Positions 6,138 to 51,781 of a stretch of 60,000 nt of DNA are shown one piece after another. Made by a program: the position numbers and the translations under genes. Below the pieces are notes generated by a model. It worked only from the letters and a program-made list of their open reading frames with translations, was not told where the DNA came from and searched no databases. The stretch covers positions 56,236,001 to 56,296,000 of the forward strand of contig OZ076409.1 in the NCBI GenBank assembly GCA_964187785.1, in the 5' to 3' direction. Within the stretch, counting starts at the first letter, position 1, and each line of letters starts with the position of its first letter. Source of the stretch: Amphiscolops sp. MND2022 (Eukaryota).

Positions 6138-6728
6138 TCTTCTGTCATGAACGTGACGGGCAGATTGTCCACCCGATCGGTATCCATCATGTTGTTCATT
6201 TCTACAGTCGGCCTTAGCACTTGGAATTCGCTGTTCCTCGGCATTTGCTTCCGGTCTCTCGACTGGGACTTCCCATCCCCCTCTGGTCTCTCGGCCTGAT
6301 CCGGCCATTATGACATTCTGTATTTGAGGCAATACTTGACTACTAATAGCTTCATTAATGGCCCTTTGGATCAGCGTATCAACATTACTCATCATTTCAT
6401 CCATCTCACGGGATATCCTAGAGTTCAATTCGCTAGACAACCTATTTATCTCAGCTAGTGAGTTTGCTTCAGCCGAGTTTTGGCCAAGATCGGCACTTGT
6501 CCTAGGTTCATCATTTCTACAATTTGAAAACATGCTTTCGCCCTCGTTGTCTAAGTTATTACTCATGATACTTTCTCTCCTTCTAACGGAGTTACTTTCT
6601 AAACTCCTTTCTCTTTCAGTTCCCTTGTAACGATCGCCTCCTAACATTATATCTAAATTTTCGATATCAGAAAGGATCTCTAGTCCTCTGGACTTTCTAG
6701 CCTTCTTTTGTTTTCTTGTAGTAGGCAT
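6135..6728 (-). other. LTR-borne duplicate of the gag N-terminus (~195 aa), stopping in flanking DNA
   Basis: MPTTRKQKKARKSRG... matches the first ~195 aa of the ORF at 19462-20997 except for two substitutions. Confidence 0.9.
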
Positions 6729-7870
6729 AAGGAAAACTTCGAGTATAAAATTGAATTAGATTATATCTCGAAAATAACAGTGAAACCGTTTGTACTAATA
6801 TGATAGTCTTTTTCAGAAGAGAGCAAATTAAGAAGTGTCTCCTCTCTCAAAGGCACGGGTATTTATACCCCTGAAAGGGTGACACTCTCATTCTTTACAT
6901 TCCTTGACTAAGACAATATCATATGACTGCATTTTTGATGGTCACGGGATGAACGCTATCCATTCCAAATATTATACATCAAAGGAACAATCATTCAACC
7001 GTTAGCATCGTTTACATATTTGGCGAAATATTTTCATTGAACAGGTATTTGTTGATGTAAGTGCACATACTTTAGCACGTGGCAGCACAACAAATATGTT
7101 TAGTCTAAATACCTTTCACGGGTACAATGGCAAAAGGCCTAATAAGGCAACAATATCAAATTTCATGCAACAGCTATTTTAGAACAAATTGGATAACTAT
7201 TTGTTAATGGTACAACAGAACATCAATTAACACTTCAGATTGGTATTTCATGATCAACAAAGCTAACTATTAACTAAATATCATTACATGAAATTAGCAT
7301 CAATCATAAGTGCTTTGTTTATGGCGGACTGAATAGCCGGATTAGGCCGGTTGCCTGAACGGCATTAATAGCACTTTCGTTCGGTTTGTACAAAGGCCGT
7401 AATTGGCAAAAGAGAATAAAGCACACGAAAATGAAGGCCTCTGATTGGCTAATTGGGTGAGCGCAAGCGGCGTTGGCAAGAAAGTACAGGAGTCCATTTG
7501 AACTCGTTTCCGTACTTTCTCTTAGTTGCTTGCTATAATCTTTGATTATTACTACATTGCATTGATAATACAACAATACAGCACAATCTATGTTAACAGA
7601 CTAATATACAGTTAACATTCAAGACTAAGGTTGATCATAAGTAATCAACAAGTGCGATAATTCTAAGTTTTGGTAACAAGGGAATACGTCCCAGTACGGC
7701 CCTTTTTGGCTATTTTCTAAAATAATATGGCAACAAAATACATAAGCAACGTAAAAGTTTAAGAGAAAGTTTTAGTTTACTTTAATAGATAGGGAGGGTT
7801 CCTGGGGCCACATCCTGGCCAACAGCTGTTGTTGTAATCCTTGTGCCGTCACAGGCGGCAGCCTGCGACA
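6143..7870 (-). repeat. 3' LTR of Gypsy element B (1728 bp)
   Basis: Near-identical to 20412-22139. I noticed only four substitutions by eye (~6166, ~6533, ~7797, ~7813). Confidence 0.97.
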
Positions 7871-8552
7871 CAGCGGGTGCAATGAAAAGAAGACTGCCTG
7901 CATTAAGACCATTGATGTAGGCTTCTTTCCTGAGAGCCGTGATGTAAGCGGGTTCGCTCCTTGGAGTTGAGACTTCCATATATCTGTTTATCTTTATGGA
8001 TTTTATTTCGTCCACAGATTTTCCACAAACCATACAGCTTGTGCACCTTTGGGAGCTGATATCAGTGTAAGGCAACGCATTTTGTATGTGGAAAGAAGCA
8101 TGGAATCCACTACTTTCGGGTTGTATCACCGGCGTATCCATAGACGGCCCTCTCTCATGAGCGGGGGGCGAAAGCGGCGACTCTAACACAGGCAAAATCG
8201 TCTTGCATAATTCTATTCTCCTCTTCGTGTTGCCTCTAGACGGAGCATAGCATAGTTCCTCGTCGAAGTAGGTTTTGTCCAGTTTCGGTGTAGTTTGCGC
8301 GTCTGAAGGCACAAAGCTAGGACCAGGTTCGTCGCTCGCCGTCGTCATCCTTCTGCCGGCTATGGTAATTGGCTCAGCCTGGACTTGAGTTTCAATCCTC
8401 CTCACCATCTCTTCTGTGTCCGTAGACCAGTCTGAGTCCCATCCGTCAGAGGTTTCTTCATCACTGCTGATGTAGATTACAGAGTCTCTCGATGAGTCAG
8501 AGCTGAATTCCAAAGAACCAAAGAGTTTTCTCGCTTTATTGAATCTTTCCAT
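7782..8552 (-). CDS. Accessory ORF of element B, 256 aa, unknown function (acidic/Ser-rich N-terminus, CxxCxxC motif); ends inside the 3' LTR
   Basis: Intact ATG-to-stop ORF containing CTSCMVCGKS. The last ~29 codons lie within the LTR. The junction peptide resembles the one at element D's 3' LTR border. Confidence 0.7.
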   Translation of the reverse strand: MERFNKARKLFGSLEFSSDSSRDSVIYISSDEETSDGWDSDWSTDTEEMVRRIETQVQAEPITIAGRRMTTASDEPGPSFVPSDAQTTPKLDKTYFDEELCYAPSRGNTKRRIELCKTILPVLESPLSPPAHERGPSMDTPVIQPESSGFHASFHIQNALPYTDISSQRCTSCMVCGKSVDEIKSIKINRYMEVSTPRSEPAYITALRKEAYINGLNAGSLLFIAPAVSQAAACDGTRITTTAVGQDVAPGTLPIY

Positions 8553-9595
8553 TATTAGTTTTTTCGCAATTTTGGGGATTTGCTAGTCAACTTGTCGTGA
8601 GCGAGTTTGAAATCAGAATGAGCTTGTTGCCTCCTCAAATTCCGAGTTAGGCCTTTTCCCGAAGTTTCCAATTTAGCGGGAGAATCTCAGGTTGATTGCC
8701 CCGATTCTTCGTAAACATTCCTGAAAGAAATTCCTAAACGGGGTTGGCGGCCCCGATTAAGTAGGTGTTTGCCCTTCATACGAGCCATCATCAAAGTGGG
8801 TGTAAGCAGCACTTAATTTGTTGATATCAAATATCTTTTCTTTAAGTGGGTAATTAACGGCTTGCTTCGGATCAATTAATAACACGCGCCGCTAAATTCT
8901 TTCAACATGGCTTCAGCCAATCAGAGTTAAGCTCTGATAAAATGAAAAATTAAATAATAAAATGGCGAAAATAAAAAATCTGAATAATTCAAAATGGCGG
9001 ATTTTTAACTAGCGGTAACTGAGTTAACTGAACTAAATAATAAAGTGCAACAGGTCAAACGGCCGGAATCGGCAACTAACTAAGTAAGCTGTAAATAACA
9101 AAGTTCTTTGTACATTTCGCTGGCAGACTCCATGTACATAATAAATATGTAAATAACTAAATAATATTAGTCTGATAAACTTCCTTCAGCCACGAACTCC
9201 AACTTCTAATTCCATTAACCCATTTTAATTCCAATTCAATTCCAATTATTTTACTTTGTCTTCTTCGTCTGATATCCATTACCGGACAATTTTCTCCACT
9301 CTTCTTAATCTCTTCAACAGCGTCCTTCTTCCTCTTTGAAGTATTCCCGAGACCTGTCCTTGGTCCGAGTTCGGCCAGATTCCACACCTTCTGAGCTTGA
9401 TTGGTTCGACAGTAAAAGGCAAAGCAGGACGGAATGTCTTCAGTTGAAGGTTGGTTTGCTTTGGTTTTGAACTTAATTTACTTGATCAGGGCTAAATTTG
9501 TTCACAAGATGCTTCCTGTATCCATCAGTAAACACGTGATAACACGTTTTGTTCAATTTTTCAAAGTACTTCCGGAAGTTTTCTAATGCGGTAGA
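8553..9595. promoter_or_regulatory. Candidate internal bidirectional promoter between the divergent accessory genes
   Basis: Head-to-head ORF starts. AGCCAATCAG (~8916), TGATTGGTT (~9399) and two AAAATGGCG (YY1-like) motifs (~8959, ~8991). Confidence 0.4.
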
Positions 9596-12500
9596 ATGGA
9601 TTTCTTTCAAGGAAGCTTACCGCCAAATTTCATCTCCTTCTGTTTAGAACAACAGAACGTCGACGAACCACAAATTCAAAGCATTTCCACAACTGGTAAT
9701 TCCACTGCGCTTCCTCAACGTCCTTTACCCATCTCAATGCCCAGCAGTACGCCTTCTCCACCTCCGTTTCCCCCAATAAGAACATTCCTCGGCCAAGCGC
9801 AACAGTTGACTGCTGACTCTCCCTTTAGCAATGAAAGTAACGTTGATGTCACAGCGTATGCAGACGAGATGGTCCAACGTATGGAAGTCTCACAGGGGTT
9901 GACTGACACAAATCCTGCCGGCCCTAGGGAAGAAGAGCCGTCTCCGGCACAAGGCCCAGTTGTCCCAGACGTGGGTCACGTCCTTATTCAAGTGAGAACT
10001 AGCACCCCAACACCCTCAGAGCAGCCTGGAACAGAAGTTACCAGCATTTCACAACTTGAGTCCTCACTGTCAGTAGCGCCGCAGTCGCAGTCTGGTTTCC
10101 CTGAGCTGCAACTTGCCCAGAATCGTAGTCACGATACATCTGCAGTTTCTTTCCTGCAGTCAGATGATGAAGCCTCATCTTCTGTCCATGAGCCTCCTCC
10201 ACTCCCCGGCGGAACAGGACATTTCACCGCTCCAGGGGACCACAATGACACCACCCAGGCTGTTGATACTACCAGTCAGTCTGAAATTCCCCTCTTGTAC
10301 GCGAGCATCCCTTTCGGAACGGGGTCAACATCAGAGGCTCAAGAAGATTCAGGATCGGAAATACACGATCCAGGACCACCAGGGACTTCTCGGTTTAATC
10401 CTCAGCCACAAGAAGAAGTTCTGCGAGATTTGTCAGGACGCAGCAGAGCCACTCTCAAACAGTATTTTGAGGCCGAAGACCCTTACACGTTCCCGGTTGG
10501 ACAGAGGTTTGTAGCCTTCACAGAGCCGCAGGTCTATCACCTGCTTCGGGTTCTCACTGACGAGGCCATCAATATGACTTGTATCACCATGGAGAGAATG
10601 GTAATTGGAGCAGTAAAAGGAACTCCCGTGACTGCCCCTTCACGGACTGAGAAGTTCCGGACGCGAACCCGAGCTCCTTCCCCAGGATCCAATCGCCAAG
10701 CTGGGTCCAGCTCCGACGAGCTTTCTGTCGATCTTGGTTCTCAGCCCAGTCCACAACTTGACCTGAGCACACTCCAGGATGTCAGTGGTCTCTCCTATCT
10801 CGAAGATAGTGACAGTTCCATGGAAAGGCTCTTGATTGACAGAGTTTATAATAAACCTGCTCCTGAAAATCTCTCTACAGCCTCACAACCAGGGCTGTCA
10901 CACAACACGACTGAGGGAGAGACTGAATTCCAGGAGAAGAGCAGCCTGGACTGTACTTTGTCTGAGCTTCGCGGTCAATCTCCTACCCAGAAGTCCCGTC
11001 AGGCAGTTGTCTCAGCCAGGAAAAGCAAGAGCAAGAGGATGCCAAGGCGGGGTGTGCCTATGCGTGAGGAGTTCTTCTCCAAGATAGCATGGACAAGATC
11101 CTTCATTTCTGGCCCAGCAGACCCGCTACATAACCCTTACATGGTGTGGTGCCACATGTGCAAGAAAAATTTTAGCATAAAGACTAAAGGCACTGTGGAA
11201 ATCTTGCGTCACCACAGGACTGAGAAACACCTTCGCCGAGACCAGAGGTGGCGGTTCGAGCACCTCAAGACAGTTGATGACGTGACAGGGAAAGTCCAGC
11301 ACAGAGTTCGAGGAAGGGATGGCAAAGTCCTCAATAAATCCGACCTTGCGCAAGAGCTTCCCAAATTCATCCACACAGAACTTGTTGACGTTGGCGAGAG
11401 ACATCCTTTTTACGAGGATTACTTGAAAGGACACTCTTCGGCTCCTGTAACACCTCAATCGCGATTGCAGGCCCAGATTTGCCTCTTGGGAGATTTCGTC
11501 CAGGACTCAGGCAACATAGCTATCCTCCGCAGGTTGTGGGCTAGAGCAGGGAGCTATACTGGATTCCAATCAGTCTTCCATGATTTTGACTGGAGCGAAG
11601 ACCACATCATGGTAAGTTCACTCGTTTGTTTCATCATAGAACCATTCGTAGCGTAAGGGTAGCTTGTAATGGTAAAGCCGTATGGTCATCCGAGTTTCGT
11701 TCCGTTTCAGGCCATTTTCCAACACGTCTTCAACTGCATGATGGAAGACGTGGCAGAGCAAGTCATCGCTTCCCAACACTATGGGATTGAGTTCGAGAAG
11801 AGAGGGGCCAATCGCTTGATGTATATCCGATTTTGGAAGGGTGCAAAGCTTTGTCGCATCTTCGTCTGTCGAAGTGGACTTTCTGGCGTCGGGCTCACTG
11901 AGGAGATGGGCTCCCTATCACGATTGTTGTCTGCCATTTCTACCGCTCCCGATGTGGTCGCGATATCTGGATGTGCCGTTGACCTGATAAGGACAGTGGA
12001 CCAGCATCCCTCTTACCCACGTGGGATCCAAAGTTGCTTCCGGTTTGAGTCGCTCGACTTGAGGACCTTGATGCACAAGGTAAACTACAGCGTCTTCGGG
12101 CACATAGACATGTTCTCTGTCCTTCAATGTCTTCTGGTCTCGCTTGGAGGTTGCTTATCTGAGGACTGGGTCACCGATTCGACTGAACTTGTCCGAGTAA
12201 GTCTATTTTGCAAATTTGTTCTGCATAATATTGGTGAAGGGCGGAGGTAGTCACTGACAGTTAGGGCTCCCATTTTTAAATCGTTTTGTTTAGGCTATCA
12301 CAACTTGCACACTGGAAATAACCAAAATACCTGATTTGTGCCGCGATCTGTTGAAGAAGTGGAAGTCGATCCTGCGCTACTTCACTGTGCATTCACGCCG
12401 ACAAGAGAATCAAGGGGTCCATAACAAGGTTGTAATTCACAAAATCATCTGTCCTTTTAGACAGAGTTCTAGTGAACGTTCCTTTTCATAAGCATAGGCA

Positions 12501-13856
12501 GGGTTATCGTTTCAAATTTACATCATACCTTTCCACAGGTCCAGAGCTTCGAGTGGTCCCTGATCATGGACAATTTCTTCACTGTCAAACTGGAGCTGTT
12601 CCAACGCCTGGTCAGCGATTGTGAGTATTTCTAGTTTGGTAGGGTCACTTTGGTCTGCCGTCCTTTTAGGGACCTTCAGATTCTGTGTTTTAGATGTCAC
12701 TAGTTTCGCCATCAATTTGGGTCAGAGGCGAGATGCTACCTTCTTCCTTTGTGGAGAGATGTGCAAGTACATCAATCGTCTTTGCTTCCGCATCTACCAG
12801 CCTGACACTGTGCCTCTGGAAAGCGCTTGGTTCCTGTTGATGGACTTCCGAATCAGTCAGGGCAAGCCCATGAGTGATGAAGATTTCCTGGTACGGCTCA
12901 AGATTGTCAGTAAAGTGACCAGTGCAAGCAACTTGAAGGCAGCGGGGCTTCATTTCAACAAGAAATCTAGTAAGGCAGCGATCGACAAGACTGCTGAAAG
13001 CGCAAAATCAGACTTTGTGAAGAGTGCGAGGGAGTTCATCAAGTTCTTGTTGTCCGGAGTACTCCAACACTCCGAGCTCGGATCTGACCTCATCAAAGGA
13101 CTGGCTGCGTTTGATCCGCATATCCTCTTCAGGAGGCCCGTAGAAATTGCTTTGCGGCATTTTGACCGTCTGTATTCCACTTTCCAACTGCGTTCCTGGG
13201 TTTCAGCGTCCAATGAGTCAGTTTGCCGGGACGAGTACGTTGCCCTATTGGAATACCTACGAGCCAACCATTCTTCTGAGTTCGGCTCCTCCTGCGATCC
13301 TCCTGATCTCATTGACTTCTTCATGGGATTGGAGTTCCTCCACACACATGAGCATCTCTGTTATCTGTTCAAACTGAGTTGCCTCTGTATCACTTCTGTG
13401 AGTCCCGAGTATCCTCCTGTTTCTTTGGGCAAGATTGACACAAAGGGGCTTCAGTCTCGTTTAGCGGACGTCATCTTGCCTTGTCAAAGTTATCTGTCAA
13501 CAGTGCCTGATTCTCTGGTTGCCTGCTGTTCTGAGTCTCGTCTCGAGAAATTCTTCGAATTGTCTTCGACGTTTGGACAGACTGCCTTCACTGCCGATTA
13601 CGACCCGTGGACCTTTGTAGACAGCTTCGGCCGTTCAGCAATTTACAAGACTCTCGTCACTTCTTATCGCTCTGTTCTCGCCGGGTCAGAATTCCATTTT
13701 AGAAGTCCTACTTTCGCTGATACTTCTTCTGTGTCTGATGCTCCTGCTGTGAGGCCACCCAGTGATAGTAAGCGGAGGCGGATGGAAAAGAGTTGTTCCC
13801 GGGGTAGAGCTTCGTCTGTCCTTGGTGAATCTTCTGCTGGTGGTTCTAAGAGCTAA
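9596..13856 (+). CDS. Spliced antisense gene of element B: BED-like zinc finger plus degenerate hAT-transposase-like protein, ~1293 aa. Exons 9596-11611, 11711-12196, 12294-12428, 12539-12620, 12694-13856
   Basis: Four GT-AG introns (GTAAGT..TTTCAG, GTAAGT..TTTAG, GTTGTA..CCACAG, GTGAGT..TTTTAG) with matching phases 0,0,0,1 join into one 3882-nt open frame. Motifs include WCHMCKKNFSI...ILRHHRTEKH, DLLKKWKSILRYF, LAAFDP and LCYLFKLSCLCITS. Confidence 0.8.
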
Positions 13857-14082: not shown

Positions 14083-17000
14083 TTAGTATCTGAAGTCTTC
14101 TGAGTAGTTTGGGTTAGGGTTAGGCCTGAGATTATATTTCCCTCCTCTAGGGCTCAGACTTTCATTTCTAGCATCGCTTTCGGATATTTCGGGCACGATA
14201 ATATCATCCCCCCTTTTTGGAGAGTTTTGTGCATCGTTTTCATTCGTCAAGTTTCTTTCTGAAAAAATTTCATCATTTTCCGGTCCACCTGCCGTACCCG
14301 GCAAAGAATTTTCTTGGTTTTTTGGGGAAACGGCCGGATTCGGCCAATCAGATTTGGTATTTTCTGTCACTGCAGTAGCTTTATTTCTTTCAGTGACGTC
14401 ATCATCTAAGCGTTTATTCCGGCTGTGTGCCGCGTTGTCGTTGTTTAATTCTTCTCGCGTGATTATGTAATCCGCTTCGGTCTCGTCTACGTCATTTGCA
14501 TTCGTTTCCGCCGTGTTCGGCTGTTCGCCATTCGGCACGCTAGTTGGAATAGTCTCGCTGCCTCGTGTAACTAGTTGCTCTCCAAAATCTGTTTCCCACG
14601 CTATGACGTATAGGTCGTCTTGCGGAATGACAATTTCTTCGTCTGGCTGCAGACGTTGTTCTCGGAAATTGTCCTCAAGCGGTTGATTGGGAATAAACCT
14701 TTTAAGGCGAATGCGATGCAAAATTTGAGTTTTGTTCGTATTGATTCTTCGTACTATGTAGTTTTCATTTGGCAAAACCTTTTGGACTACAAATGGTCCA
14801 ACCCAACGATAATCGCGGAATGGAATTTTTGATCCTTGATGATCCGCTTTCGGCTGTAAGACGAAACAGTAATCATTCTCCTTCAATGGAGCAGCTTTTG
14901 CTTTGCGATTGTAGTATTCTTTGTATTTAATATACGACTGCATAATGTTCTGTTTCGTCTTGTCAATCAAGGTTTTCGTCCGATTTTGGATTTCCTCGGC
15001 GAATTCAGTTGTAGGGCTGATCTTTTCGTTTGGATTATTTCCAAGCTTGTGATCCAAGATATTGTAGGGAATTCTGCCATGGAATACCCTTGTTGGCTCA
15101 CAACCGATGCTGGCGTGATAACTAGTATTATGATTGAGTACTGCTAATGGCAAGTATTTATGCCATTGTCGGCGGTATTCCCCACATGCCATTTTGAGAT
15201 TTGTCTTTAATGAGGCATGGGTCCGCTCTAATTTCCCAATTGTTTGCGGGTGCTTTGTCGTTGCACATTTGAGTGTAATGCCCAAAATTTGCGTAACCTC
15301 CGCAATAATCGTAGAAGTGAATGCAGTACCCTTATCAGTAATAAGAGTCGTTGGCAGATATGCATGTTTGGTCATTATGTCAATGAGCGCCTTTGCCACA
15401 TTGATTGCTGATGCGTCTGTAAGGGGGTAAGCGAACAAATATCTGGAGAAAACATCAATTGCCGTTAGAACGTTTTCGTACCCTCCACTTGGGGGAAGAT
15501 TCGGCAATAGGTCAATCTGCATGGCGTCTTCAGGTCCAAGGTCCCATTCGGGCAAGTTGAGCAGCTCAGGTGTGATCGTTGCGTTAGGGACTCTTTTGTC
15601 TCTGGCACATTGTTCACACCCTTCTACCCACTTTTTGACGTGTTTAGCCATGCTAGGGTAGTAATACCTTTGTCTAATTTCCTGCAACATTTTTGAAATC
15701 CCGGGATGTTTATGCGCTGTCCCATGAAGGGAGCGAAGCAATTCCCGAAGTAGGTGTTGCGGGAGTAAAATTTGATGGTATTTAACATTCCCTGTTTCAT
15801 CAAAATATTGCCTCGTCAGGATTTCGTCCTTTAGTACAATTCGTTCCAGATTGTTTGCGTAATGTCTATATCGGGCATCTTGGTGCACTATGTTTTCTGA
15901 ATAATCTTCATGAAGGAGCTTTGCCTTCAATTGTTGCAATACTGCATCCTTGGACTGCTCGATGATTATCTGGTTTGTTTTCTTTAATCGGACTTGGATG
16001 TCTGGTTGTTGTTTGACCAGATTGGTTGACAGAGTTTCTATGGTAACAGTGGGCTCATCAGTCATTGGATTTTTCCTGATTGCTTCTTTTCTTGCCCAAT
16101 ACTGTTCCTCTGTCTCGTCATCATCATTCGTATAGAATATTTGTTCTTCCTGTGATACTCCCGCAGATTGAACATTTATCTCAATGGGTAAAGTCTGCAC
16201 GTCCTCACGGATCTTCATGATTAATTTATCCTTCGGGTCTGCCTCCAATCGGGACAAATAGTCAGCTGCTGTGTTCTGTGCTCCCGGAATATGCGCTATG
16301 ACAAAATTGAACTGAATCACATAATCGCATGCATTCCACAGGGCTGGGGGTATTATTTTCGTTTGGAAAAATCTCGTAACGGCTTTGTTGTCGGTAAGGA
16401 TAATGACCGGTTTGGGCGCACCCCAGAATATATGTCCAAATTCTTTGAATGCAAAGTAAATTGCCAGAAATTCCTTGGCATATATTGACATTTTGATCTG
16501 GGCTGGGGTGAAGGTTTTTGATCCATAGGCCACCGGTGCGTAGGATTTTCGGAGAGATGTGAATTTCTGGTTTGGATCGTCTTCTATTAAGACCGCATAT
16601 CCAGCTGCACCAAAACTTGCATCAGTCATTAGTGCGATTTGTTTGTTCGGGATAGGCTGTTGTAGGGCCAAATCGCAACATTTGTCGAGTGCCTTGTTGA
16701 TTTCTTCGAATTGTTGGACTAATTCTTTCGATACTAGGACCTTTTCGTCACTTTTGAGCATCTTGTAGAATGGAGCAAGGCGTTCAGAGAGTCTTGGGAC
16801 ATAATTCCTGTAGTAGTTCAAGAATCCCAAGTAGCGCTGCAAAGCCTTTTTCGACTTTGGGAATTTGGTCTTTTCCAGAAGGTTTTGCACGTTCTGTTTC
16901 TGGGGTTTGACGCCTTGCGGGGTAATAGTCCGTCCGAGAAAATCAATTTCTTTTGCACCAAAGTGACATTTGTGCATTGTCAACTTAAGGCCTGCTTCCT

Positions 17001-19287
17001 GAATGCATTTGAATGTTGCTCTCAGGTTCATTATGAGGTGGTGAACATCATTGGCTGCGATGCCGATATCGTCCACATACTGGGCGCACTGATCCGCTTT
17101 AATGACTTTGTCGAGGTATTCCCTCATGAAACTCGAGAATGCGGATAGTGACCGACTAAGGCCTTGTGCCAAGCGTCTGTACGCGAATGTACGACTGGCA
17201 AAATTGAAAGCTAACATTTCGATCGAGCGTTGGTCGGCCATTGGTAGGCAGTGGTATGCCTGCGAACAGTCTAATTTACAGAACAGTTTTTTGCCTGCCA
17301 AGTGTTGGGCAGCATCAACCAAGGTGCTAACAGGGTGATTATTGTTGATATAATCATCCGAGATGAGGTTGTTGATTTTTCTCAAGTCAACCAAAAGTCG
17401 TAGCTTCCCATTTAGTTTCTTTTGGGCGAATATTGGGCTTGCATACTTCGAGAACGGTAGTGTGGTTATTATGCCATATTTGTGCAACATGGCTAATTCG
17501 ACTAGGATGTCCTCCTTCAAGTTGATAGGGGCTGGAAGACTTTGACTATAGGCTGGGGAATCGTCCTTAGGTGTCAGTTTCACTTTGAATTCCTCGTTCA
17601 TGCCTATATCAAATCGGTGTCGTGCAAAGATGTCATGGAATTCCACTAACAATTCCTCAATTTTCTCCTTCTCTTCAGGAGTAAGGGTGGAATCTTTCCA
17701 GTCAAAGTTTTTTAAGAATTTTGCACGCGATTCTGCGTCTGTGGTGGGGTCGAGTGTCTCCAGGTCCTGTAAGGCCTGTAACTCGCGTAGGATTCGTTTT
17801 TGTATGGGTGTGTGTTCCTCAGGATTTCCAGGGTTTTCTGGAGTTGGGAACCAATAATTTTCGGAGTTTTGTGGATTTCTATTGGTTTTGATGAGACTGC
17901 TGACATAATGGGCTGCTTGCTCCTGGTCATTCTGCAAAAGGTGCCAGGTTGATGCCGGGTCTACCGGTTTGACATACTTCATTTGTTCTGGCGTCATGAC
18001 AGAGAAATTGGCAATATGTAGTCCCTTTTTGAGTTTATAAGGGTGGTCTGTGAAGTTGCTCATTGGTATCGATATATTGCCGTCATTCAGAGTGACCAAG
18101 GCTGGGCAGAATGTGATGTCGCCTTCTTCATGTAGAAGGTCGCTCGGTTGTAAAATTCCAGTGACAGCATTCTCAGGGTACAGTAGGGAATTGGTCCTAA
18201 TTAGGACTCTATCATTTGGCGGAATGGTTATCTCAATGGGATTGAGAATCGGTTCTAAGACATTTGAGTATTTATGGTCAGCTGTTTTGAGCTGCATTGA
18301 GAAGAACGGGAAGTTCAGTATTCCTTGTCTCATGTCCAGGACTGTATGATTTCGTTGAAGGAACATTAGGCCGATAATCGGACCTGTCAGGTGTTCCATG
18401 ACTATAAAAATCTCATGAAACTCAATGTCACTAACTTCAAATTTGAGCTCTATGGTACTCTTAGGAGTTTCCAATTGCCCGTTAGCAACCATTATTTGGA
18501 AATTTGGAGGCGGACCTTCCCGGATGACAGATTGTGGAGATAGAAGTCGAATTTTCCGGAGGTCCATTTCAGGAATTGCACTGGACAGCGCTCCAGTGTC
18601 AATAAGTCCGTCTATGGTCAATTCCCCAAAGTCCATGGGGAAGTACAACATGCGTTTTTTGCATTTGAGATTGATGTTGGTTGACAGGGGTATACAGTCT
18701 GGTTCACCATATCTGGTGATGAGTACATTTTGGAATTGTTTTTCATCTAATAATGATTGTGGCGTGATTTCACCACTGTTTTCAGTATTCTCGGTCCCCA
18801 GGGGATTTGGGAACACCGGATGGCTTGTGCCATCATTCATTTGCCAGGTTTCAATCAATGCTCTAGTTTTCTTGTTGTGGGTGATTGGAGGATTTTCATG
18901 GGCTGATTTATTGTAGAGTTCGATATCATCAATGACGTATTGGAATTGTAGCAGATCTTGGTTGTAGAGTTCCGTGTCCCAATAGGGATCTCGTCCATAA
19001 TCGGGGTCTATGTAGGTAGGGTTGTAATCGTCTACCAAGGGAATGGGCCTGAATCGGCTATTGAAAGCAGATGTGTAATCAGGATCCCATACAGGAATTG
19101 GGTTTTGGAACAAATGGGTATTATTGTAAGTAATAATGCTAGCTTTTTCCATCTGCTGCTGCCAGACAACAGAAGGATAGCCCATCAATTGTTGATTGTA
19201 TTGGTGGAAAGTTTGCGTTGGAGGGTCCGATCTGATGTATTGTCGGACAGATATTAGTTGATTGTATTGGAGTCGTGGCGAAGTTAG
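14083..19287 (-). CDS. pol: Gypsy Pol polyprotein (aspartic protease, RT, RNase H, integrase), reached by -1 frameshift
   Basis: 1701-aa ORF at 14083-19188, open upstream to the slippery site. LIDTGAL; KLDCSQAY...QYVDDI; MTDASF; HGTAHKHPG...CEQC; QIDLL...TDKG...LER. Confidence 0.97.
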   Translation of the reverse strand, partial: LTSPRLQYNQLISVRQYIRSDPPTQTFHQYNQQLMGYPSVVWQQQMEKASIITYNNTHLFQNPIPVWDPDYTSAFNSRFRPIPLVDDYNPTYIDPDYGRDPYWDTELYNQDLLQFQYVIDDIELYNKSAHENPPITHNKKTRALIETWQMNDGTSHPVFPNPLGTENTENSGEITPQSLLDEKQFQNVLITRYGEPDCIPLSTNINLKCKKRMLYFPMDFGELTIDGLIDTGALSSAIPEMDLRKIRLLSPQSVIREGPPPNFQIMVANGQLETPKSTIELKFEVSDIEFHEIFIVMEHLTGPIIGLMFLQRNHTVLDMRQGILNFPFFSMQLKTADHKYSNVLEPILNPIEITIPPNDRVLIRTNSLLYPENAVTGILQPSDLLHEEGDITFCPALVTLNDGNISIPMSNFTDHPYKLKKGLHIANFSVMTPEQMKYVKPVDPASTWHLLQNDQEQAAHYVSSLIKTNRNPQNSENYWFPTPENPGNPEEHTPIQKRILRELQALQDLETLDPTTDAESRAKFLKNFDWKDSTLTPEEKEKIEELLVEFHDIFARHRFDIGMNEEFKVKLTPKDDSPAYSQSLPAPINLKEDILVELAMLHKYGIITTLPFSKYASPIFAQKKLNGKLRLLVDLRKINNLISDDYINNNHPVSTLVDAAQHLAGKKLFCKLDCSQAYHCLPMADQRSIEMLAFNFASRTFAYRRLAQGLSRSLSAFSSFMREYLDKVIKADQCAQYVDDIGIAANDVHHLIMNLRATFKCIQEAGLKLTMHKCHFGAKEIDFLGRTITPQGVKPQKQNVQNLLEKTKFPKSKKALQRYLGFLNYYRNYVPRLSERLAPFYKMLKSDEKVLVSKELVQQFEEINKALDKCCDLALQQPIPNKQIALMTDASFGAAGYAVLIEDDPNQKFTSLRKSYAPVAYGSKTFTPAQIKMSIYAKEFLAIYFAFKEFGHIFWGAPKPVIILTDNKAVTRFFQTKIIPPALWNACDYVIQFNFVIAHIPGAQNTAADYLSRLEADPKDKLIMKIREDVQTLPIEINVQSAGVSQEEQIFYTNDDDETEEQYWARKEAIRKNPMTDEPTVTIETLSTNLVKQQPDIQVRLKKTNQIIIEQSKDAVLQQLKAKLLHEDYSENIVHQDARYRHYANNLERIVLKDEILTRQYFDETGNVKYHQILLPQHLLRELLRSLHGTAHKHPGISKMLQEIRQRYYYPSMAKHVKKWVEGCEQCARDKRVPNATITPELLNLPEWDLGPEDAMQIDLLPNLPPSGGYENVLTAIDVFSRYLFAYPLTDASAINVAKALIDIMTKHAYLPTTLITDKGTAFTSTIIAEVTQILGITLKCATTKHPQTIGKLERTHASLKTNLKMACGEYRRQWHKYLPLAVLNHNTSYHASIGCEPTRVFHGRIPYNILDHKLGNNPNEKISPTTEFAEEIQNRTKTLIDKTKQNIMQSYIKYKEYYNRKAKAAPLKENDYCFVLQPKADHQGSKIPFRDYRWVGPFVVQKVLPNENYIVRRINTNKTQILHRIRLKRFIPNQPLEDNFREQRLQPDEEIVIPQDDLYVIAWETDFGEQLVTRGSETIPTSVPNGEQPNTAETNANDVDETEADYIITREELNNDNAAHSRNKRLDDDVTERNKATAVTENTKSDWPNPAVSPKNQENSLPGTAGGPENDEIFSERNLTNENDAQNSPKRGDDIIVPEISESDARNESLSPRGGKYNLRPNPNPNYSEDFRY

Positions 19288-20997
19288 TTTTTTGACTCAT
19301 CATTGGAAGATGAGGCCTGTGAGTTGGAAGATGTTGATTTGTTTTGTGGTTTCTGCGCTTTTGAATTGGGTTTACCGTCATTAGCGTCATCTGGTCTGGT
19401 GCGTTTGGGTTTGAGATGCGCACCAGCACCTTGCCAACATCTTTCTTCCGGGTGGTTCTTTTTACCACAAGTGCCACACTCCGGATACGTCTTTTTCTGA
19501 GTTTGTTCGCCTTGTTGGGCATCTTTTTCTTTTTTTCTTCTTCAATTTTTCACAGTCTTTGACCATATGGCCCTTCTCCTTGCAGTAGTTGCAAGTGATG
19601 TCCGACATTTGCCCAGTAGTTAGAGGAGTCTTGGATTTTGTTGTCGAGGAGGTCATTGTGGCCATTGGTAGGTCGTCTGATTCGTCAAGGGCATTTAGTT
19701 CTAATTCTCTCTCTAAATGAGCAACTATTTCGTCATAAGAGCCGTTTTCGAGTCTGGCCATGTTTACAGACCGCTTCAGTTTTGGTGGCAGTTTTGCGTA
19801 GAGCAAACTGTCAATCATTTTCTGCGCGTGATCCCCGAATGCTTTTTCTGCCCCTTGATTTAATTCTTCAAGGAAATCTGGCAGTTTCATCGTGTTGGGA
19901 TCGAAGACTAGACGGTGCCATTTATGTTTGGCAGTTGCTTGTGATTCAGGTTTGACGTATTTTCGTCTGAATATTACCAATACGTCCTCTAAAGTCTGTC
20001 TATTGCTCGAGCTGATGTTGCGGAAGGTTTGGAGAGCATTCTTCCTCAGCAGTGAGTGGAAGTGATTTATTTTCATCTGTTCCGTCATTTCCGGTTGCAT
20101 CTTGATCATCGTGTGGAACAGGTCCTCAAACAGCTCGAATTTTTCACTCTTGCCATCAAAGGTCATTGTGTTTGAATTGACTGGGCGTATAGTGAGTTGT
20201 TGGGCTGTCGGACTATTCTGCATCGTTGTCAAGACATCTGCTAGTCGAGTAATAGGGTCGGTTTGAGCAGCCGGAGCATTTCTCTCTTGCGCTGGGATCG
20301 TCGTGTCAAGGTTGATGTCTTCATAGGACCTGTCGAGATGGTTTCTGGATGAGACTCGTCCCGTGAGAAACTCGGGAACTTGAAGTGGAGATTCGTTGTC
20401 TCCTGTCACCATGTCATGAACGTGACGGGCAGATGGTCCACCCGATCGGTATCCATCATGTTGTTCATTTCTACAGTCGGCCTTAGCACTTGGAATTCGC
20501 TGTTCCTCGGCATTTGCTTCCGGTCTCTCGACTGGGACTTCCCATCCCCCTCTGGTCTCTCGGCCTGATCCGGCCATTATGACATTCTGTATTTGAGGCA
20601 ATACTTGACTACTAATAGCTTCATTAATGGCCCTTTGGATCAGCGTATCAACATTACTCATCATTTCATCCATCTCACGGGATATCCTAGAGTTCAATTC
20701 GCTAGACAACCTATTTATCTCAGCTAGTGAGTTTGCTTCAGCCGAGTTTTGGCCAAGATCGGCACTTGTCCTAGGTTCATCATTTCTACAATTTGAAAAC
20801 AGGCTTTCGCCCTCGTTGTCTAAGTTATTACTCATGATACTTTCTCTCCTTCTAACGGAGTTACTTTCTAAACTCCTTTCTCTTTCAGTTCCCTTGTAAC
20901 GATCGCCTCCTAACATTATATCTAAATTTTCGATATCAGAAAGGATCTCTAGTCCTCTGGACTTTCTAGCCTTCTTTTGTTTTCTTGTAGTAGGCAT
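19284..20997 (-). CDS. gag: Gypsy Gag (~570 aa after removing one A from the A7 run at 19530-19536), with two CCHC zinc knuckles
   Basis: Capsid-like TFDGKSEKFELFEDLF; CNYCKEKGHMVKDC. The second knuckle CGTCGKKNHPEERC appears only after a 1-nt correction. Confidence 0.9.
19287..19293 (-). other. -1 ribosomal frameshift heptamer A AAA AAC directly before the gag stop
   Basis: Minus strand reads TCA AAA AAC TAA. The -1 frame (CTA ACT TCG...) is open and in phase with pol. Confidence 0.8.
20400..20411 (-). promoter_or_regulatory. Primer-binding site TGGTGACAGGAG of element B
   Basis: Directly follows the CA end of the 5' LTR and starts with TGG (complement of tRNA CCA). The tRNA identity is not established. 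Confidence 0.85.
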
Positions 20998-22139
20998 AAG
21001 GAAAACTTCGAGTATAAAATTGAATTAGATTATATCTCGAAAATAACAGTGAAACCGTTTGTACTAATATGATAGTCTTTTTCAGAAGAGAGCAAATTAA
21101 GAAGTGTCTCCTCTCTCAAAGGCACGGGTATTTATACCCCTGAAAGGGTGACACTCTCATTCTTTACATTCCTTGACTAAGACAATATCATATGACTGCA
21201 TTTTTGATGGTCACGGGATGAACGCTATCCATTCCAAATATTATACATCAAAGGAACAATCATTCAACCGTTAGCATCGTTTACATATTTGGCGAAATAT
21301 TTTCATTGAACAGGTATTTGTTGATGTAAGTGCACATACTTTAGCACGTGGCAGCACAACAAATATGTTTAGTCTAAATACCTTTCACGGGTACAATGGC
21401 AAAAGGCCTAATAAGGCAACAATATCAAATTTCATGCAACAGCTATTTTAGAACAAATTGGATAACTATTTGTTAATGGTACAACAGAACATCAATTAAC
21501 ACTTCAGATTGGTATTTCATGATCAACAAAGCTAACTATTAACTAAATATCATTACATGAAATTAGCATCAATCATAAGTGCTTTGTTTATGGCGGACTG
21601 AATAGCCGGATTAGGCCGGTTGCCTGAACGGCATTAATAGCACTTTCGTTCGGTTTGTACAAAGGCCGTAATTGGCAAAAGAGAATAAAGCACACGAAAA
21701 TGAAGGCCTCTGATTGGCTAATTGGGTGAGCGCAAGCGGCGTTGGCAAGAAAGTACAGGAGTCCATTTGAACTCGTTTCCGTACTTTCTCTTAGTTGCTT
21801 GCTATAATCTTTGATTATTACTACATTGCATTGATAATACAACAATACAGCACAATCTATGTTAACAGACTAATATACAGTTAACATTCAAGACTAAGGT
21901 TGATCATAAGTAATCAACAAGTGCGATAATTCTAAGTTTTGGTAACAAGGGAATACGTCCCAGTACGGCCCTTTTTGGCTATTTTCTAAAATAATATGGC
22001 AACAAAATACATAAGCAACGTAAAAGTTTAAGAGAAAGTTTTAGTTTACTTTAATAGATAGGGAGAGTTCCTGGGGCCACAACCTGGCCAACAGCTGTTG
22101 TTGTAATCCTTGTGCCGTCACAGGCGGCAGCCTGCGACA
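20412..22139 (-). repeat. 5' LTR of Gypsy element B (1728 bp)
   Basis: Repeat of 6143-7870, followed by the PBS. Contains the gag ATG at 20997. Confidence 0.97.
21129..21136 (-). promoter_or_regulatory. Candidate TATA box (TATAAATA) in the element B LTR
   Basis: Lies ~130 bp upstream of the gag ATG; copy at 6860-6867. Upstream CCAAT-like motif at ~21712. Confidence 0.55.
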
Positions 22140-22144
22140 TCTTC

Positions 22145-32362: not shown

Positions 32363-33950
32363 TGTCACAGTCCGCGCCCGGACTGGATTGAATTAAAAGC
32401 AAACTAAAACTAATTTACGTCACCGCTTAGCCAAAACGATTGAATTTGCGTCGCGACTACGCTACGTCACAGCCTCGTCTACGCATACCAGACAATCATT
32501 CCGATTATCCGTCTATACTAATAGTTTACTTGAAATCATTCCAATTTTCCGCCAATGTGACGTCACAGCGCTGGCAGCTAACTAGCTAAAGTCTTATTCT
32601 AAATACCCGTCAGCATCACGTCAAACTAGACAAAATCTCATTTCTGCCAAGAAAACTCGTCAACATGACGTTGACAAGTTTATGAAATTAGACGTATTGA
32701 GTATTTTCCATCAAAATAGCTTGTTTTAACCCGTCCAAAATACCAAATTTACGTCCACTCTACGGCCACTAAAATTGCGGACTAAGACTAATACCAAAGT
32801 TACGTCCACACTACGTCCCAAATTTATGAAAATAGGCGTTTTAGTCAGTATCGAATTTAAAAGAAGCCTTATTTTACTACGGTAAGACTAATCGAAGCTA
32901 GAATATGAATCAACGTCAACACTACGTCTTTTGAATCTACGTCAACGCTACGTCAACTAATATACTAGAAGTTGAGAAAACACATTTCTACGTCAGTATT
33001 GCGTCGAGTAAGATTGAATTCGAACGGAATATGGTATTTAAGCCAGGATTTTTCAGACTAACTTAAAATAACAGTGTTTTAACGCTATTTAAATTGGAGA
33101 GTCACAGTTTATCCTCACTTTGTGTTAAGAAAGTGCAGTCTAAGCAGGCGTTTCAAATGTATGCTTTGATTACCTAATTTATTAAACTCATTGGCTGTTT
33201 GACGATGTCACGTCGTCTTTTATTGTTGCTCAAGGGTGTTCCTCTTAACTTTATTCAGATAAATAATTGTTGATTGTTGAAATATACAATTGTTTAACCT
33301 CATGTAAAACAGTCACTCTCTTAGCATCACCAAATTGTCTAAATCAAGATAATTAGTCATAATTTTCTTCAAGTAAAAATTCAAAATCAGGTATTAGTTG
33401 TTCACGTCAGCGTCATCTCCGCGGCGGTTTCTTACGAACCAAAGCAGTAAAACGGGGAAATATTTCCGGTTTGACAGACTGAAGTAATAACTACTTCCTG
33501 CTTGGGAGGAAACAAAAGGACGCCGGAGAGAAATGATATGATCATGGTTGATGACTTATACTCGATTAGAATTGCCGTGTCTTAAAAAGTGACGAAATGC
33601 TAACGCAGATCAAAATTTTGCCGCAAAATTACAGGAAGTGACTAATATCTTGATTCGAAATTAAAGTACGCGAGTATGAACAGATGATGCTAGGAGGGTA
33701 TATATAGATTGTACCTGTAAAATTATTCAATTCAATTTGTTATTCAACCTGCGTTTCAGTTTTGTTCTCAATTTCGATTGAATATCTACCTTCGTAAAAC
33801 GCAAAATTCAAAACTTACATTTCAAATACTTTGTTCAAAACAATCATATCTTCATCAAGATGTCAACTAGAGGTCGGAAAACAGTCCAGCAGTCGATTAG
33901 CAAAAAACACCCAAAATAGCCAAAGTAGCGATCGAACAAATTTCGTAACA
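32363..33950 (+). repeat. 5' LTR of element D
   Basis: Highly similar to 35998-37585. TATATATA at 33699-33706. Many ACGTC motifs. Confidence 0.92.
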
Positions 33951-34560: not shown

Positions 34561-34931
34561 TACCACAACACGTGATTTCAAAAGTCGGCAGCATACTCTT
34601 TGGGGTGTTACATCGGTAAGTTAAAAAAAGTAAAATCTCCCTGAGGCTGAGACGTGCATTCGAAAGATGACGATGACGTAGTCTCTGAAGCACACATTCA
34701 CGAATCGACTAGTCAAAAAATCTAAGCAATGAACATTCAAAAGCAGAAAAGGCCTATCTGCAGTTTCGTATGATTCACAAAAGCTTAATGAAACGGGGAA
34801 TGTTACAAACCTAAGGGTTGTTGAACAACCAGCGCGTCGGCGTCACTAATACGCACATCTCCCTTAGAGAACAAAAATGAGTCTAATTATCACTTTGCAG
34901 ATCATGATCTTTTAAGACCATATGGATCTGA

Positions 34932-35250
34932 AAATGACCGTGTTATAACAACCCATATACAAAGACGACGCAAGATTGACGTCGCAAATGACCGGGTTAT
35001 AACAGCCCATTTACAAAGACGACGCAAGATTGACGTCGCAAATGACCGGGTTATAACAGCCCATTTACAAAGACGACGCAAGATTGACGTCGCAAATGAC
35101 CGGGTTATAACAGCCCATTTACAAAGACGACGCAATATTGACGTCGCAAATGACCGGGTTATAACAGCCCATTTACAAAGACGACGCAAGATTGACGTCG
35201 CAAATGACCGGGTTATAACAACCCAATATAAAAGGACGCAAGATTGTTGT
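34932..35250. repeat. 54-bp tandem repeat, ~6 copies
   Basis: Unit AAATGACCGGGTTATAACAGCCCATTTACAAAGACGACGCAAGATTGACGTCGC starts at 34932, 34986, 35040, 35094, 35148 and 35202. Confidence 0.95.
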
Positions 35251-35997
35251 CAATGGAAAAAACAGGGTCAAAACAACCCTATATAAAATGACGTAAAAGT
35301 GACCTCAATAAAACCTCAAAAAAACCCTCTACCGTTGGTGGTCGTCTATGTGTGTGGGGCCCTCACAGGAAAAATTGGCTGAATGATCTGAATGAGCCAG
35401 TGAAACAAGTCAGTCTATCAGAGAGAAAGTAACAGACTCAATTGGGCACGAGCTGCTATGTCCACCTCGACCCCAATTCAACAACACGAGAGTGTTTTAC
35501 CCCATGACAGTGGCCCTGTCACAGTCCGCTCCCGGCCTGGATTGTGCTTGCCAAAAGGTGCCGTTTGTCCGTTGTCATGGATGCATTATGGAAACATTTA
35601 GACGATTTTATTAAGCTGAAATAAACTGTAACCAATTAAGAGCATAAAAATTTAAGTTAAGATATGAATGATTTTATAGCCTAAGTCATAACGAACTTAT
35701 CTTCACACATTTCCACTCATTCATAGCGACTACATTTCAATAATTTTCCTGCAAAGTACAACGAAAACATATCATTGAAATTAGCTGCCGCAAAAAGAAT
35801 GAAGTTACGTCAACAATTATGAATAAAGAAAAACTGGAGATTGATAAATAAACAATTGAAGAGAAAATATTTCTCCAAATCTAAATGGAATTTTTTTCCT
35901 AGTACAGAAACAGTCGTCTTGAAAGTATACAAATCACAATATCCTCTCTTGTATTTTATCATGCCCATGGGAACTCTTCTTCCCATGACAGTGGCCC

Positions 35998-37585
35998 TGT
36001 CACAGTCCGCGCCCGGACTGGATTGAATTAAAAGCAAACTAAAACTAATTTACGTCACCGCTTCGCCAAAACGATTGAATTTGCGTCGCGACTACGCTAC
36101 GTCACAGCCTCGTCTACGCATACCAGAAAATCATTCCGATTATCCGTCTATACTAATAGTTTACTAGAAATCATTCCAATTTTCCGCCAATGTGACGTCA
36201 CAGCGCTGGCAGCTAACTAGCTAAAGTCTTATTCTAAATACCCGTCAGCATCACGTCAAACTAGTCAAAATCTCATTTCTGCCAAGAAAACTCGTCAACA
36301 TGACGTTGATAAGTTTATGAAATTAGACGTATTGAGTATTCTCTATCAAAATAGCTTGTTTTAACCCGTCCAAAATACCAAATTTACGTCCACTCTACGG
36401 CCACTATAATTGCGGACTAAGTCTAATACCAAAGTTACGTCCACACTACGTCCCAAATTTATAAAATTAGGCGTTTTAGTCAGTATTGAATTTAAAAGAA
36501 GCCTTATTTTACTACGGTAAAACTAATCGAAGCTAGAATATGAATCAATGTCAACACTACGTCTTTTGAATCTACGTCAACGCTACGTCAACTAATATAC
36601 TAGAAGTTGAGAAAACACATTTCTACGTCAGTATTGCGTCGAGTAAGATTGAATTCGAACGGAGAATGGTATTTAAGCCAGGATTTTTCAGACTAACTTA
36701 AAATAACAGTGTTTTAACGCTATTAAAATTGGAGAGTCACAGTTTATCCTCACTTTGTGTTAAGAAAGTGCAGTCTAAGCAGGCGTTTCAAATGTATGCT
36801 TGGATTACCTAATTTAATAAACTCATTGGCTGTTTGACGATGTCACGTCGTCTTTTATTGTTGCTCAAGGGTGTTCCTCTTAACTTTATTCAGATAAATA
36901 ATTGTTAATTGTTGAAATATACAATTGTTTAACCTCATGTAAAACAGTCACTCTCTTAGCATCACCAAATTGTCTAAATCAAGATAATTAGTCATAATTT
37001 TCTTCAAGTAAAAATTCAAAATCAGGTATTAGTTGTTCACGTCAGCGTCATCTCCGCGTCGGTTTCTTACGAACCAAAGCAGTAAAACGGGGAAATATTT
37101 CCGGTTTGACAGACTGAAGTAATAACTACTTCCTGCTTGGGAGGAAACAAAAGGACGCCGGAGAGAAATGATATGATCATGGTTGATGACTTATACTCGA
37201 TTAGAATTGCCGTGTCTTAAAAAGTGACGAAATGCTAACGCAGATCAAAATTTTGCCGCAAAATTACAGGAAGTGACTAATATCTCGATTGGAAATTAAA
37301 GTACGCGAGTATGAACAGATGATGCTAGGAGGGTATATATAGATTGTACCTGTAAAATTATTCAATTCAATTTGTTATTCAACCTGCGTTTCAGTTTTGT
37401 TCTCAATTTCGATTGAATATCTACCTTCGTAAAACGCAAAATTCAAAACTTACATTTCAAATACATTGTTCAAAACAATCATATCTTCATCAAGATGTCA
37501 ACTAGAGGTCGGAAAACAGTCCAGCAGGAGATTAGCAAAAAACACCCAAAATAGCCAAAGTAGCGATCGAAAAAATTTCGTAACA
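35998..37585 (+). repeat. 3' LTR of element D
   Basis: Repeat of 32363-33950, followed by the TSD AAAAC. Confidence 0.92.
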
Positions 37586-51080: not shown

Positions 51081-51448
51081 TGCATATTTAATTAAAATCC
51101 ATGAGCCTAAATTAGTTTAGGTTTAAATTGCAGAAATATGAATGTAGAATAGATTGAAAGTGTGAGCCGTTGAAATGCTAACTGTTGAATTTACAAAGAA
51201 TGAAATGCCCTGACACCTTGCTATTCAATATTGAGAGAATTAATCGTCACGCTTCTTCGGCGCCTTTATATTATTCTTCTCCTGCTCCCAACCTGATTCC
51301 GCTAGGTGATTTTTATTTACCATTGAGGATTTGTAATTTGAAAATGCCATGCTTTACTTTACATTTATTGTATCTCAGCTGTGGTTGTAATATTTGTAGA
51401 ATCAGAGTTTGAATGTTGATATAAATCCACTTTTCAGTCAAACAATCA

Positions 51449-51550
51449 GTTTCTGCGTTTTAGCGTGACTTGTTGAGCGCACTCCGAAACTACCAAATAT
51501 ATTTGGTAGTTTTGGAGTGCGCTCAACAAGTCACGCTAAAACGCAGAAAC
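51449..51550. repeat. 102-bp loopless palindrome (1 mismatch)
   Basis: GTTTCTGCGTTTTAGCGTGACTTG...CCAAATA|TATTTGG...CAAGTCACGCTAAAACGCAGAAAC. Confidence 0.95.
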
Positions 51551-51576
51551 AGAATTACACAGAAACAGAAACAGAA

Positions 51577-51781
51577 TACACAATAAAACAGAATTTATGT
51601 GCTTTGAGAAATTTTGCTCGGGCATGTCAAGACGGCAAAAAATGTAACTAATAAAATGTAAAAAGCAAAAAAGGCAACAGAAAATATTCTTTGTTTTTTA
51701 CATTTTATTAGTTACATTTTTTGCCGTCTTGTCATGCCCGAGCAAAATACTCGAAGCAAATAAATTTTGTTTTATTGTGTA
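51577..51781. repeat. Fold-back MITE-like inverted repeat (~90-bp arms)
   Basis: TACACAATAAAACA...GCTCGGGCATG...AATGTAACTAATAAAATGTAAAAA and its reverse complement, separated by a short spacer. Confidence 0.85.

Follow-up and report, generated by a model that had tools for sequence, protein, structure and literature searches.

A purine-poor 3' LTR junction and a conserved U3 hairpin in a Ty3/Gypsy retrotransposon lineage of Amphiscolops

How a reverse transcriptase (RT) chooses its primer when it makes plus-strand DNA is still unsettled according to the available text of reviews, and a locus in Amphiscolops sp. MND2022 raises the question directly. Within the window, by which we mean the whole stretch of 60,000 nucleotides analyzed, a retroelement termed B carries CACCCGCTG directly 5' of its 3' LTR, with no purine tract. 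The first-pass annotation of this DNA proposed that the lineage of B does without a polypurine tract (PPT) and uses a non-canonical priming signal, possibly guided by RNA structure or by an accessory protein. What, then, sets the start of the plus strand in B?

Element B lies on the minus strand and is bounded by LTRs of 1,728 bp with TG...CA ends (5' LTR, 20412–22139, −; 3' LTR, 6143–7870, −), which differ from each other at 4 of 1,728 nt and are flanked by copies of the target-site duplication (TSD) GAAGA at 22140–22144 and 6138–6142. A 12-nt primer binding site (PBS; TGGTGACAGGAG, 20400–20411, −) abuts the CA of the LTR and pairs with the 3' end of a host tRNA-Leu; the tail pattern of this tRNA has 881 matches in the genome, and one of four such loci given to ARAGORN was called as tRNA-Leu(CAG). 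The gag gene (19462–20997, −), with a DUF1759 domain and a CCHC knuckle, begins inside the 5' LTR, where the TATA lies at LTR nt 1004 and the gag ATG at LTR nt 1143. The pol gene (14083–19296, −) is a single open frame of 1,737 aa in the order protease, RT, RNase H, and integrase. This domain order is that of Ty3/Gypsy elements (Metaviridae), as are the TG...CA LTRs, the 5-bp TSD, and the tRNA-Leu PBS, and among solved RTs, those of foamy virus and of Ty3 come closest (E about 1e-28 to 1e-25). To judge from these features, B is a Ty3/Gypsy LTR retrotransposon.

Downstream of pol, B carries three antisense ORFs of 689, 195, and 430 aa (9587–13856, +), probably exons of one gene; none has a Pfam match. 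The first contains a finger-like CxxC...H...H motif (WCHMCKK...HH...H), which we take to be BED-like. Homologues, antisense every time, occur in 37 of 54 relatives and were not found in the basal clade of the lineage, so that these ORFs appear to belong to the lineage, as a captured gene retained across most of it, and not to a nested insertion. B itself sits inside another LTR element, A (975–24475), of which an ORF fragment flanking B is presumably BEL/Pao-like. At 20412–20997 (−), gag starts about 585 nt within the 5' LTR, and its frame crosses the LTR end and the PBS (MVTG); the frame across the PBS is open in most of the 30 PBS loci viewed. Tails resembling tRNA-Leu also form a dense tandem array at G000:C8:35587799-35637281 and onward, with a spacing of about 240–300 bp.

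Read on the minus strand, the 3' border of B is GGCAGTCTTCTTTTCATTGCACCCGCTG/TGTCGCAG, where the slash marks the LTR start at 7870. Upstream lies CTTCTTTTCATTGCACCCGCTG, and the LTR then opens with a 9-bp stem and a TGCC loop (GTCGCAGGC-TGCC-GCCTGTGAC; 7848–7869, −; LTR +2 to +23). A canonical 3' PPT has a U-rich tract 5' of the primer and a purine run abutting U3. The former is present in B at −22 to −14 (7884–7892, −), the U-box position; the latter is absent throughout the B clade, where the longest purine run within 4 nt of the LTR is 1–2 nt, only 3–4 of the 11 primer-site bases are purines, and the junction ends in CCCGC(A/T)G. The absence of a purine tract from the B border, as first annotated, was thus confirmed: none of the 30 closest B copies has one, and the upstream 28 nt are identical in 29 of them, with a single change in the other. 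Also borne out were the junctions and GC-rich stem-loops reported for B and for a second element, D, both of which fold beyond dinucleotide shuffles (z −3.7 and −3.2, respectively), and the claim that both elements integrated, given their TSDs (GAAGA and AAAAC) and near-identical LTRs. Exact matches to the LTR start of the B clade number 3,601 in the genome; the clade appears abundant and young, and, as far as its genomic copies tell, it integrates precisely without a purine tract.

Several other candidates for the function of this border were considered and rejected. A purine tract farther upstream (AGGAAAGAAG, ending 51 nt 5' of the LTR) does not mark the end, as 30 of 30 LTR-start loci begin at TG; those at 3' junctions have the usual upstream sequence, the others abut unrelated flank, and no upstream extension was seen among them. 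A splice acceptor would fit the pyrimidines plus CAG of most B subfamilies, but the large subfamily to which B belongs reads CTG, and D reads CCC. A second tRNA-binding segment, as in Ty3, finds an antisense match to tRNA-Leu of at most 5–6 nt. Priming by a translocated primer, presumably of the hepadnavirus type, would call for a repeat, and the 8- and 10-nt words preceding the junction occur only once in element B.

The PBS pattern of B has 7,527 matches in the genome, which share a single tRNA-Leu, span many distinct families, and belong to elements of about 15–19 kb; by this count, the tRNA-Leu-PBS lineage would make up a major part of the 1.07-Gb genome. Our sample of it consists of 71 elements from 100 PBS sites among the matches listed, all from the start of contig C1. 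Fifty-nine of the 71 gave a 3' junction (12 were unmapped), 54 of the 59 with a TSD, and together with B and D they form 35 junction families. At one and the same position, these families present a series of tracts that runs from the textbook AAAAAGGGGGGGAA through AAAGAGGCGGAG, AAAAGTGGGGAG, CCAGGGGGAG, CCCCCGGGGAG, AAAAATGCGGGAC, AAGAGGGGCCC, and ATGACAGTGGCCC to CACCCGC(A/T)G, with GGGGGAG and GCGGGAC among the intermediates at B's position. A purine run ending no more than 4 nt from the LTR is at least 7 nt long in 8 of the 35 families, 4–6 nt in 16, and at most 3 nt in 11. The proposal that the lineage lacks a PPT is not borne out in that form: the B clade is purine-poor with precise ends, but eight families have runs of at least 7 nt. 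PPTs had also been ascribed to elements A, C, and E of the window, which stands for A (AAAGGCGGGCGGA) and for one repeat pair that we took to be E (GAAGCGGAAAGGAG).

The coding sequence around the border ties the two ends of this series together. The ORF of the sister families reads PGG-VSQA where that of B reads APA-VSQA, so that B's eroded site is the homologue of the G-tract. A rapid phylogeny of 40 RT-RNase H rows, with SH-aLRT support only and rooted at the midpoint (15 of 54 elements without a single 300-aa RT match omitted, L155 and L166 among them), nests the B clade (5 rows, SH-aLRT 100) in a clade of 15 rows (99), the remaining rows of which end in G-rich tracts such as GGGGGAG, and places the autonomous relative of D, L278, elsewhere. 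A joint clade of B and D was rejected (AU p = 4e-77; the pairing came from the first-pass annotation, and the test was run after the tree had been seen). By position and phylogeny, the sites of B and D are evidently the same site as the purine tract, eroded separately. We found no clade-specific changes in RNase H; just three substitutions set the B clade apart from the rest, and these are conservative and all lie before the RNase H domain. One locus, L307 (G000:C1:8401244), has a B-clade LTR after AAAGGGGCCC, a sequence similar to another clade's primer site, which may reflect chance, insertion at a junction, or a chimera.

Loss of purines has left other features of the junction in place. G occupies −4 in 34 of 35 families, A is never found at −6 (0/35), A or T stands at −2 in 28, each position from −3 to −7 is G or C in 29–34, and a 10-nt window with at least 8 pyrimidines lies between −30 and −7 in 33. 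We compared these positions with the cut consensus reported for HIV RNase H (A/U at +1, G/C at −2, and a base other than A at −4; PMC5766924). If the cut is placed 2 nt before TG, all three positions agree in each of the 13 B subfamilies and in 27 of 35 families. No other upstream register does so in more than 13 of the 35, and one downstream register does so in 15; between −3 and −7, the consensus finds almost no rival cut site. This test borrows HIV's consensus and assumes a 2-nt spacer, which may not be the rule of this RT: seven D-side families have C at −2 and hence a non-preferred +1 under the HIV rule, the available text of two studies indicates that Ty3 RT and HIV RT each fail to read the other's junction (PMC3185511; PMC5371799), and the latter states specifically that Ty3 RT does not recognize the HIV junction (PMC5371799). 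HIV priming is further reported to require −2G, −4G, +1A, and the U-tract (PMC1802577); of these guanines, B retains the HIV-type −2G without the −4G.

From the register we infer a short G/C-rich primer followed by a two-base spacer that integrase would remove. The spacer (7871–7872, −; TG in B and AG, AC, AA, or CC in relatives) would be the first two DNA bases, and the RNA primer body would be TTGCACCCGC at about −12 to −3 (7873–7882, −), with the conserved G at −4 at 7874. Our preferred reading, to which we assign a probability of roughly 0.6, is that the B junction is an eroded but working plus-strand primer site, possibly aided by the hairpin. A short C/G-rich run would have replaced the 3' PPT of the B clade and likely still serves as plus-strand primer. 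With G at −4 and A/U at −2 as guides, RNase H would cut 2 nt ahead of TG; a primer of about 6–10 nt would survive behind the U-tract because the G/C run offers no preferred cut site; RT would extend it, and integrase would trim the two spacer bases. More speculatively, the U3 hairpin might refold the RNA just 3' of the cut and peel it off the minus-strand DNA, leaving free template ahead of a weak primer and so relaxing the need for purines. This RNA-clearing role is suggested because cuts downstream of the PPT are reported to make room for synthesis (PMC5766924).

The same bases might be conserved for other reasons, since the junction falls within an ORF in most families. In B, this sense accessory ORF (256 aa; 7782–8552, −) spans the 3' LTR border as ...FIAPA/VSQAAACDG..., and in coding families the G at −4 doubles as the first base of a codon. 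A degenerate pattern for the junction peptide matches the genome at 1,289 sites (control, 0), and the ORF has 190 homologues, the best 120 of which are 50–98% identical. We therefore compared fourfold-degenerate sites among 13 subfamilies with 54–88% amino-acid identity (17 of 86 loci, which lack a long open frame, were dropped). Diversity was 0.11 at codons −2 to +5 (7 columns; p = 1e-5), 0.70 upstream along the ORF (52 columns), and 0.69 after the hairpin (10 columns). Because fourfold sites are saturated elsewhere and nearly fixed here, the junction is constrained as nucleic acid, and what the first-pass annotation called a conserved coding junction is in fact a conserved cis signal.

Element D provides a view of this signal outside a gene. 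Apparently a non-autonomous relative of B (5' LTR, 32363–33950, +, TSD AAAAC; 3' LTR, 35998–37585, +), D has LTRs that are 98.3% identical and the junction GGAACTCTTCTTCCCATGACAGTGGCCC/TGTCACAG. The junction in use (35982–36025, +) comprises the primer site, the LTR start at 35998, and the hairpin CAGTCCG-CGCC-CGGACTG at 36003–36020. Its primer is half purine (ATGACAGTGG) and hence not free of purines. The first-pass annotation took D to be coding in B's phase, of which the peptide likeness stands, stemming as it does from the autonomous relative L278, while D itself has no long conserved ORF: at 30 D-type loci, the frame upstream of the junction is open for just 19–83 codons and broken by indels. 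In these non-coding copies, 16 nt upstream of the LTR persist, and sequence farther upstream diverges. Moreover, the LTR-start motif is present twice, about 400–480 bp apart and with no conserved long frame, in 27 of the 30 loci; in D, the upstream duplicate lies at 35501–35544 (+) as CCCATGACAGTGGCCC/TGTCACAG..., with its TG at 35517. At three of the 27 double-motif loci, the upstream copy abuts unrelated flank, and these three, located elsewhere, are solo LTRs that start at the upstream junction copy and have perfect 5-bp TSDs (3/3); either copy of the signal can therefore set the LTR end. The internal region of D also holds a decayed RT fragment and, at 34878–35306, a 54-bp tandem repeat in an open frame of 153 codons, and its PBS shows a 4-nt duplication (TGGTGAGTGACAGGAG).

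These data bear on the view that junction conservation reflects only protein constraint and an integrase attachment site, with the hairpin serving end binding, packaging, or transcription, and with loose priming from which only correctly ended cDNAs integrate. The location of the junction inside an ORF and some folding at U5 ends agree with such a scheme, as does the fact that all visible copies have integrated, which filters for correct ends. We nevertheless regard it as clearly unlikely: the synonymous sites upstream of the border (codons −2 and −1) are nearly fixed too, the 16 nt persist in non-coding D copies, and a clade as abundant and young as B's speaks against wasteful priming. Guidance of priming by the accessory protein, offered as a possibility by the first-pass annotation, is scarcely credible. 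Its ORF is subject to purifying selection and, in most clades, runs across the border in one and the same phase, but homologues were matched in 19 of 54 relatives, with none detectable in the basal clade, although that clade shares the architecture, including the hairpin and some C-rich primers, and the signal sets LTR starts even in non-coding D-type copies. The protein itself has no Pfam match; its model is of low confidence (pLDDT 51), with two or three helices after a CxxCxxC motif, and gave an uninformative best fold match (Z 5.0). The HIV nef ORF, which likewise overlaps the primer site, is described as overlapping the PPT with no such role (PMC5893875, available text). At G000:C1:47790868-47797073, the accessory ORF and junction occur in five head-to-tail copies spaced at 1,545 bp.

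The hairpin, which takes up about the first 24 nt of U3, is widely shared. Across 34 families, U3 positions +1 to +30 fold with a mean z of −2.3 against mononucleotide shuffles, below −2 in 20 families and below −1 in 27; control windows fall below −2 in 0/34 (+31 to +60), 4/34 (+101 to +130), and 2/34 (across the junction, mean z −0.1). Stem sequences differ by clade (TCATAC/GTATGA, TCACAGC/GCTGTGA, TCGCAAGC/GCTTGTGA, ACGACC/GGTCGT), within one register the stem pairs change on both sides, and consensus folds place the stem entirely in U3; the covariation check proposed at first annotation, run across the lineage, accordingly came out in favor of the hairpin. As it is present in the full-purine-tract families L153, L155, and L166 and in the basal clade, which is without homologues of B's accessory and antisense genes, the hairpin appears older than the erosion. 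Which strand forms it is less clear-cut: stability favors the plus strand in 19 of 35 families and the minus strand in 16, and G-T versus A-C pairs number 6:11 within stems by one method and, by another, 23:8 over positions 2–9 or 9:8 over positions 3–9. Some folding is seen at the U5 end as well (mean z −1.3, 9/34 below −2, mononucleotide shuffles), and the hairpin would thus also fit a role at the DNA ends or with integrase.

Such constancy invites the idea that the hairpin, and not the primer sequence, mainly decides the plus-strand start or RNase H cut, with upstream bases mattering little beyond their G/C content. It is the most constant feature among clades with differing stem sequences, it is kept in non-coding D copies and was duplicated there together with the junction, and stems are strongest in the B clade and the clade sister to it (mostly about −14 to −19 kcal/mol). 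However, it also accompanies full purine tracts, several families have a weak hairpin or none (z above −1 in 7/34), and conservation of the U-tract and of G at −4 does not depend on it; we consider this account unlikely. Fewer purines go with a stronger hairpin in a weak correlation (rho 0.35, p = 0.04, among families that are not independent), and the L159/L170 clade combines C-rich primers with a weak hairpin. A broader idea is that in the B clade the U3-start hairpin replaced the purine tract as determinant of the left LTR end; it might license a primer poor in purines, or else mark the cut site on cDNA that was primed at a newly acquired central G-tract. This we hold as tentative and rather doubtful; if true, B would integrate as an LTR element with no polypurine primer to specify its end.

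Central priming has a candidate site in B. Near the end of pol and about mid-genome, AAAAAGGGGGGA (14207–14218, −) may be a central PPT: an A-rich sequence followed by G5–6, about 6.2 and 6.3 kb away from the PBS and the 3' LTR, respectively. The plus strand of the B clade could start there, the left LTR end being cut later by integrase or another nuclease at the CA beside the hairpin. B shares the A-rich plus GGGGG(G)A tract with 7 of the 8 B-clade elements compared with it, the exception being an old copy with GGGGC, and sister-clade rows have GGC codons or other sequence at this position, with no G run. Genome matches number 1,041; among those listed, Gly is encoded by GGG in 100 of 100, whereas the Pro codon that lies three positions upstream is variable (73 CCA, 21 CCG, 5 CCT, 1 CCC), and the tract is kept in three internally shortened copies. 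Yet the 20 nt downstream are also nearly invariant, so the tract may be part of another signal, and a synonymous control gave a background of 0.21 from 3 columns only. The 3' junction, for its part, fits the RNase H consensus in every B subfamily, and a central tract can coexist with a 3' primer. In HIV, central-tract priming alone is reported to yield 1-LTR circles while integration goes undetected, and processing by integrase to be lowered when the ends are extended (PMC13332604, available text). Because central priming in HIV has this outcome, the G-tract of B more likely supplements the 3' primer than replaces it, and a central start with later end cutting is quite improbable.

We return to the preferred reading, an eroded primer site that still works, and its relation to known systems. 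The HIV-1 3' PPT and U3 consist of a U-tract, an A-tract, a G-tract, the cut G/A, and then ACTG. The lineage shares the upstream U-rich tract, a G/C run, a G two bases before the inferred cut, an A after it, and a two-base spacer before TG, and junctions such as those of L260 (AAAGCGGGGGAC/TG) and L181–L193 (AAAAATGC(A/G)GGAC/TG) are HIV-1-like. Unlike HIV-1, the B clade has lost the A-tract and carries CCCGC in place of the G-tract; HIV G-tract mutants are reported to lose priming and integration (PMC13332604), whereas the B clade integrates precisely. Ty3 belongs to the same superfamily and has a similarly short PBS. PPT and RT are thought to co-evolve, and the upstream T-rich box matters (PMC3185511; PMC10085805, available text). 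In the portions of the literature available to us, Ty3, Tf1, and Ty1 primers are described as purine-rich, single pyrimidines are at most noted for retroviral ones, and neither a mostly pyrimidine primer nor a conserved stem wholly in U3 is described.

Sireviruses (Copia) offer the closest parallel to the hairpin, an inverted repeat at the PPT/3' LTR border that is likewise precisely placed and was proposed to aid PPT formation (PMC2829016; PMC3601003); a systematic search for such hairpins has been called for (PMC3601003). As described in the accessible text, the Sirevirus left arm lies upstream of a purine-rich PPT, which sits in the loop (PMC2829016; PMC3601003). The B lineage shows a different arrangement, with both arms in U3 and the primer outside the stem. 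The mid-genome G-tract near the end of integrase coding recalls the lentiviral central PPT and Ty1 PPT2, but unlike these it is not a copy of the element's own 3' primer and resembles the ancestral form. A search of largely open-access literature turned up no Gypsy element described as combining a purine-poor primer with a U3 hairpin.

The junction feature, as read from the genome, is real and holds across the sampled lineage, and we regard it as a variant of PPT priming, with an eroded G/C-rich primer site and a conserved U3 hairpin, rather than a new mechanism. Ranging from families with a full purine tract to others almost free of purines, the lineage forms a natural series in which erosion took place at least twice, with closely related RTs and thousands of precisely ended copies. 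Its example suggests that priming can make do with a U-tract, G/C content, and a G in a set place. A role for the conserved hairpin could be tested with short oligonucleotides. Annotation of LTR elements by their PPTs would miss or mislabel such families. Elsewhere in the window, at 51446–53979, there are several long palindromes or inverted repeats (e.g., 51576–51782 and 52448–53979), which probably derive from DNA transposons.
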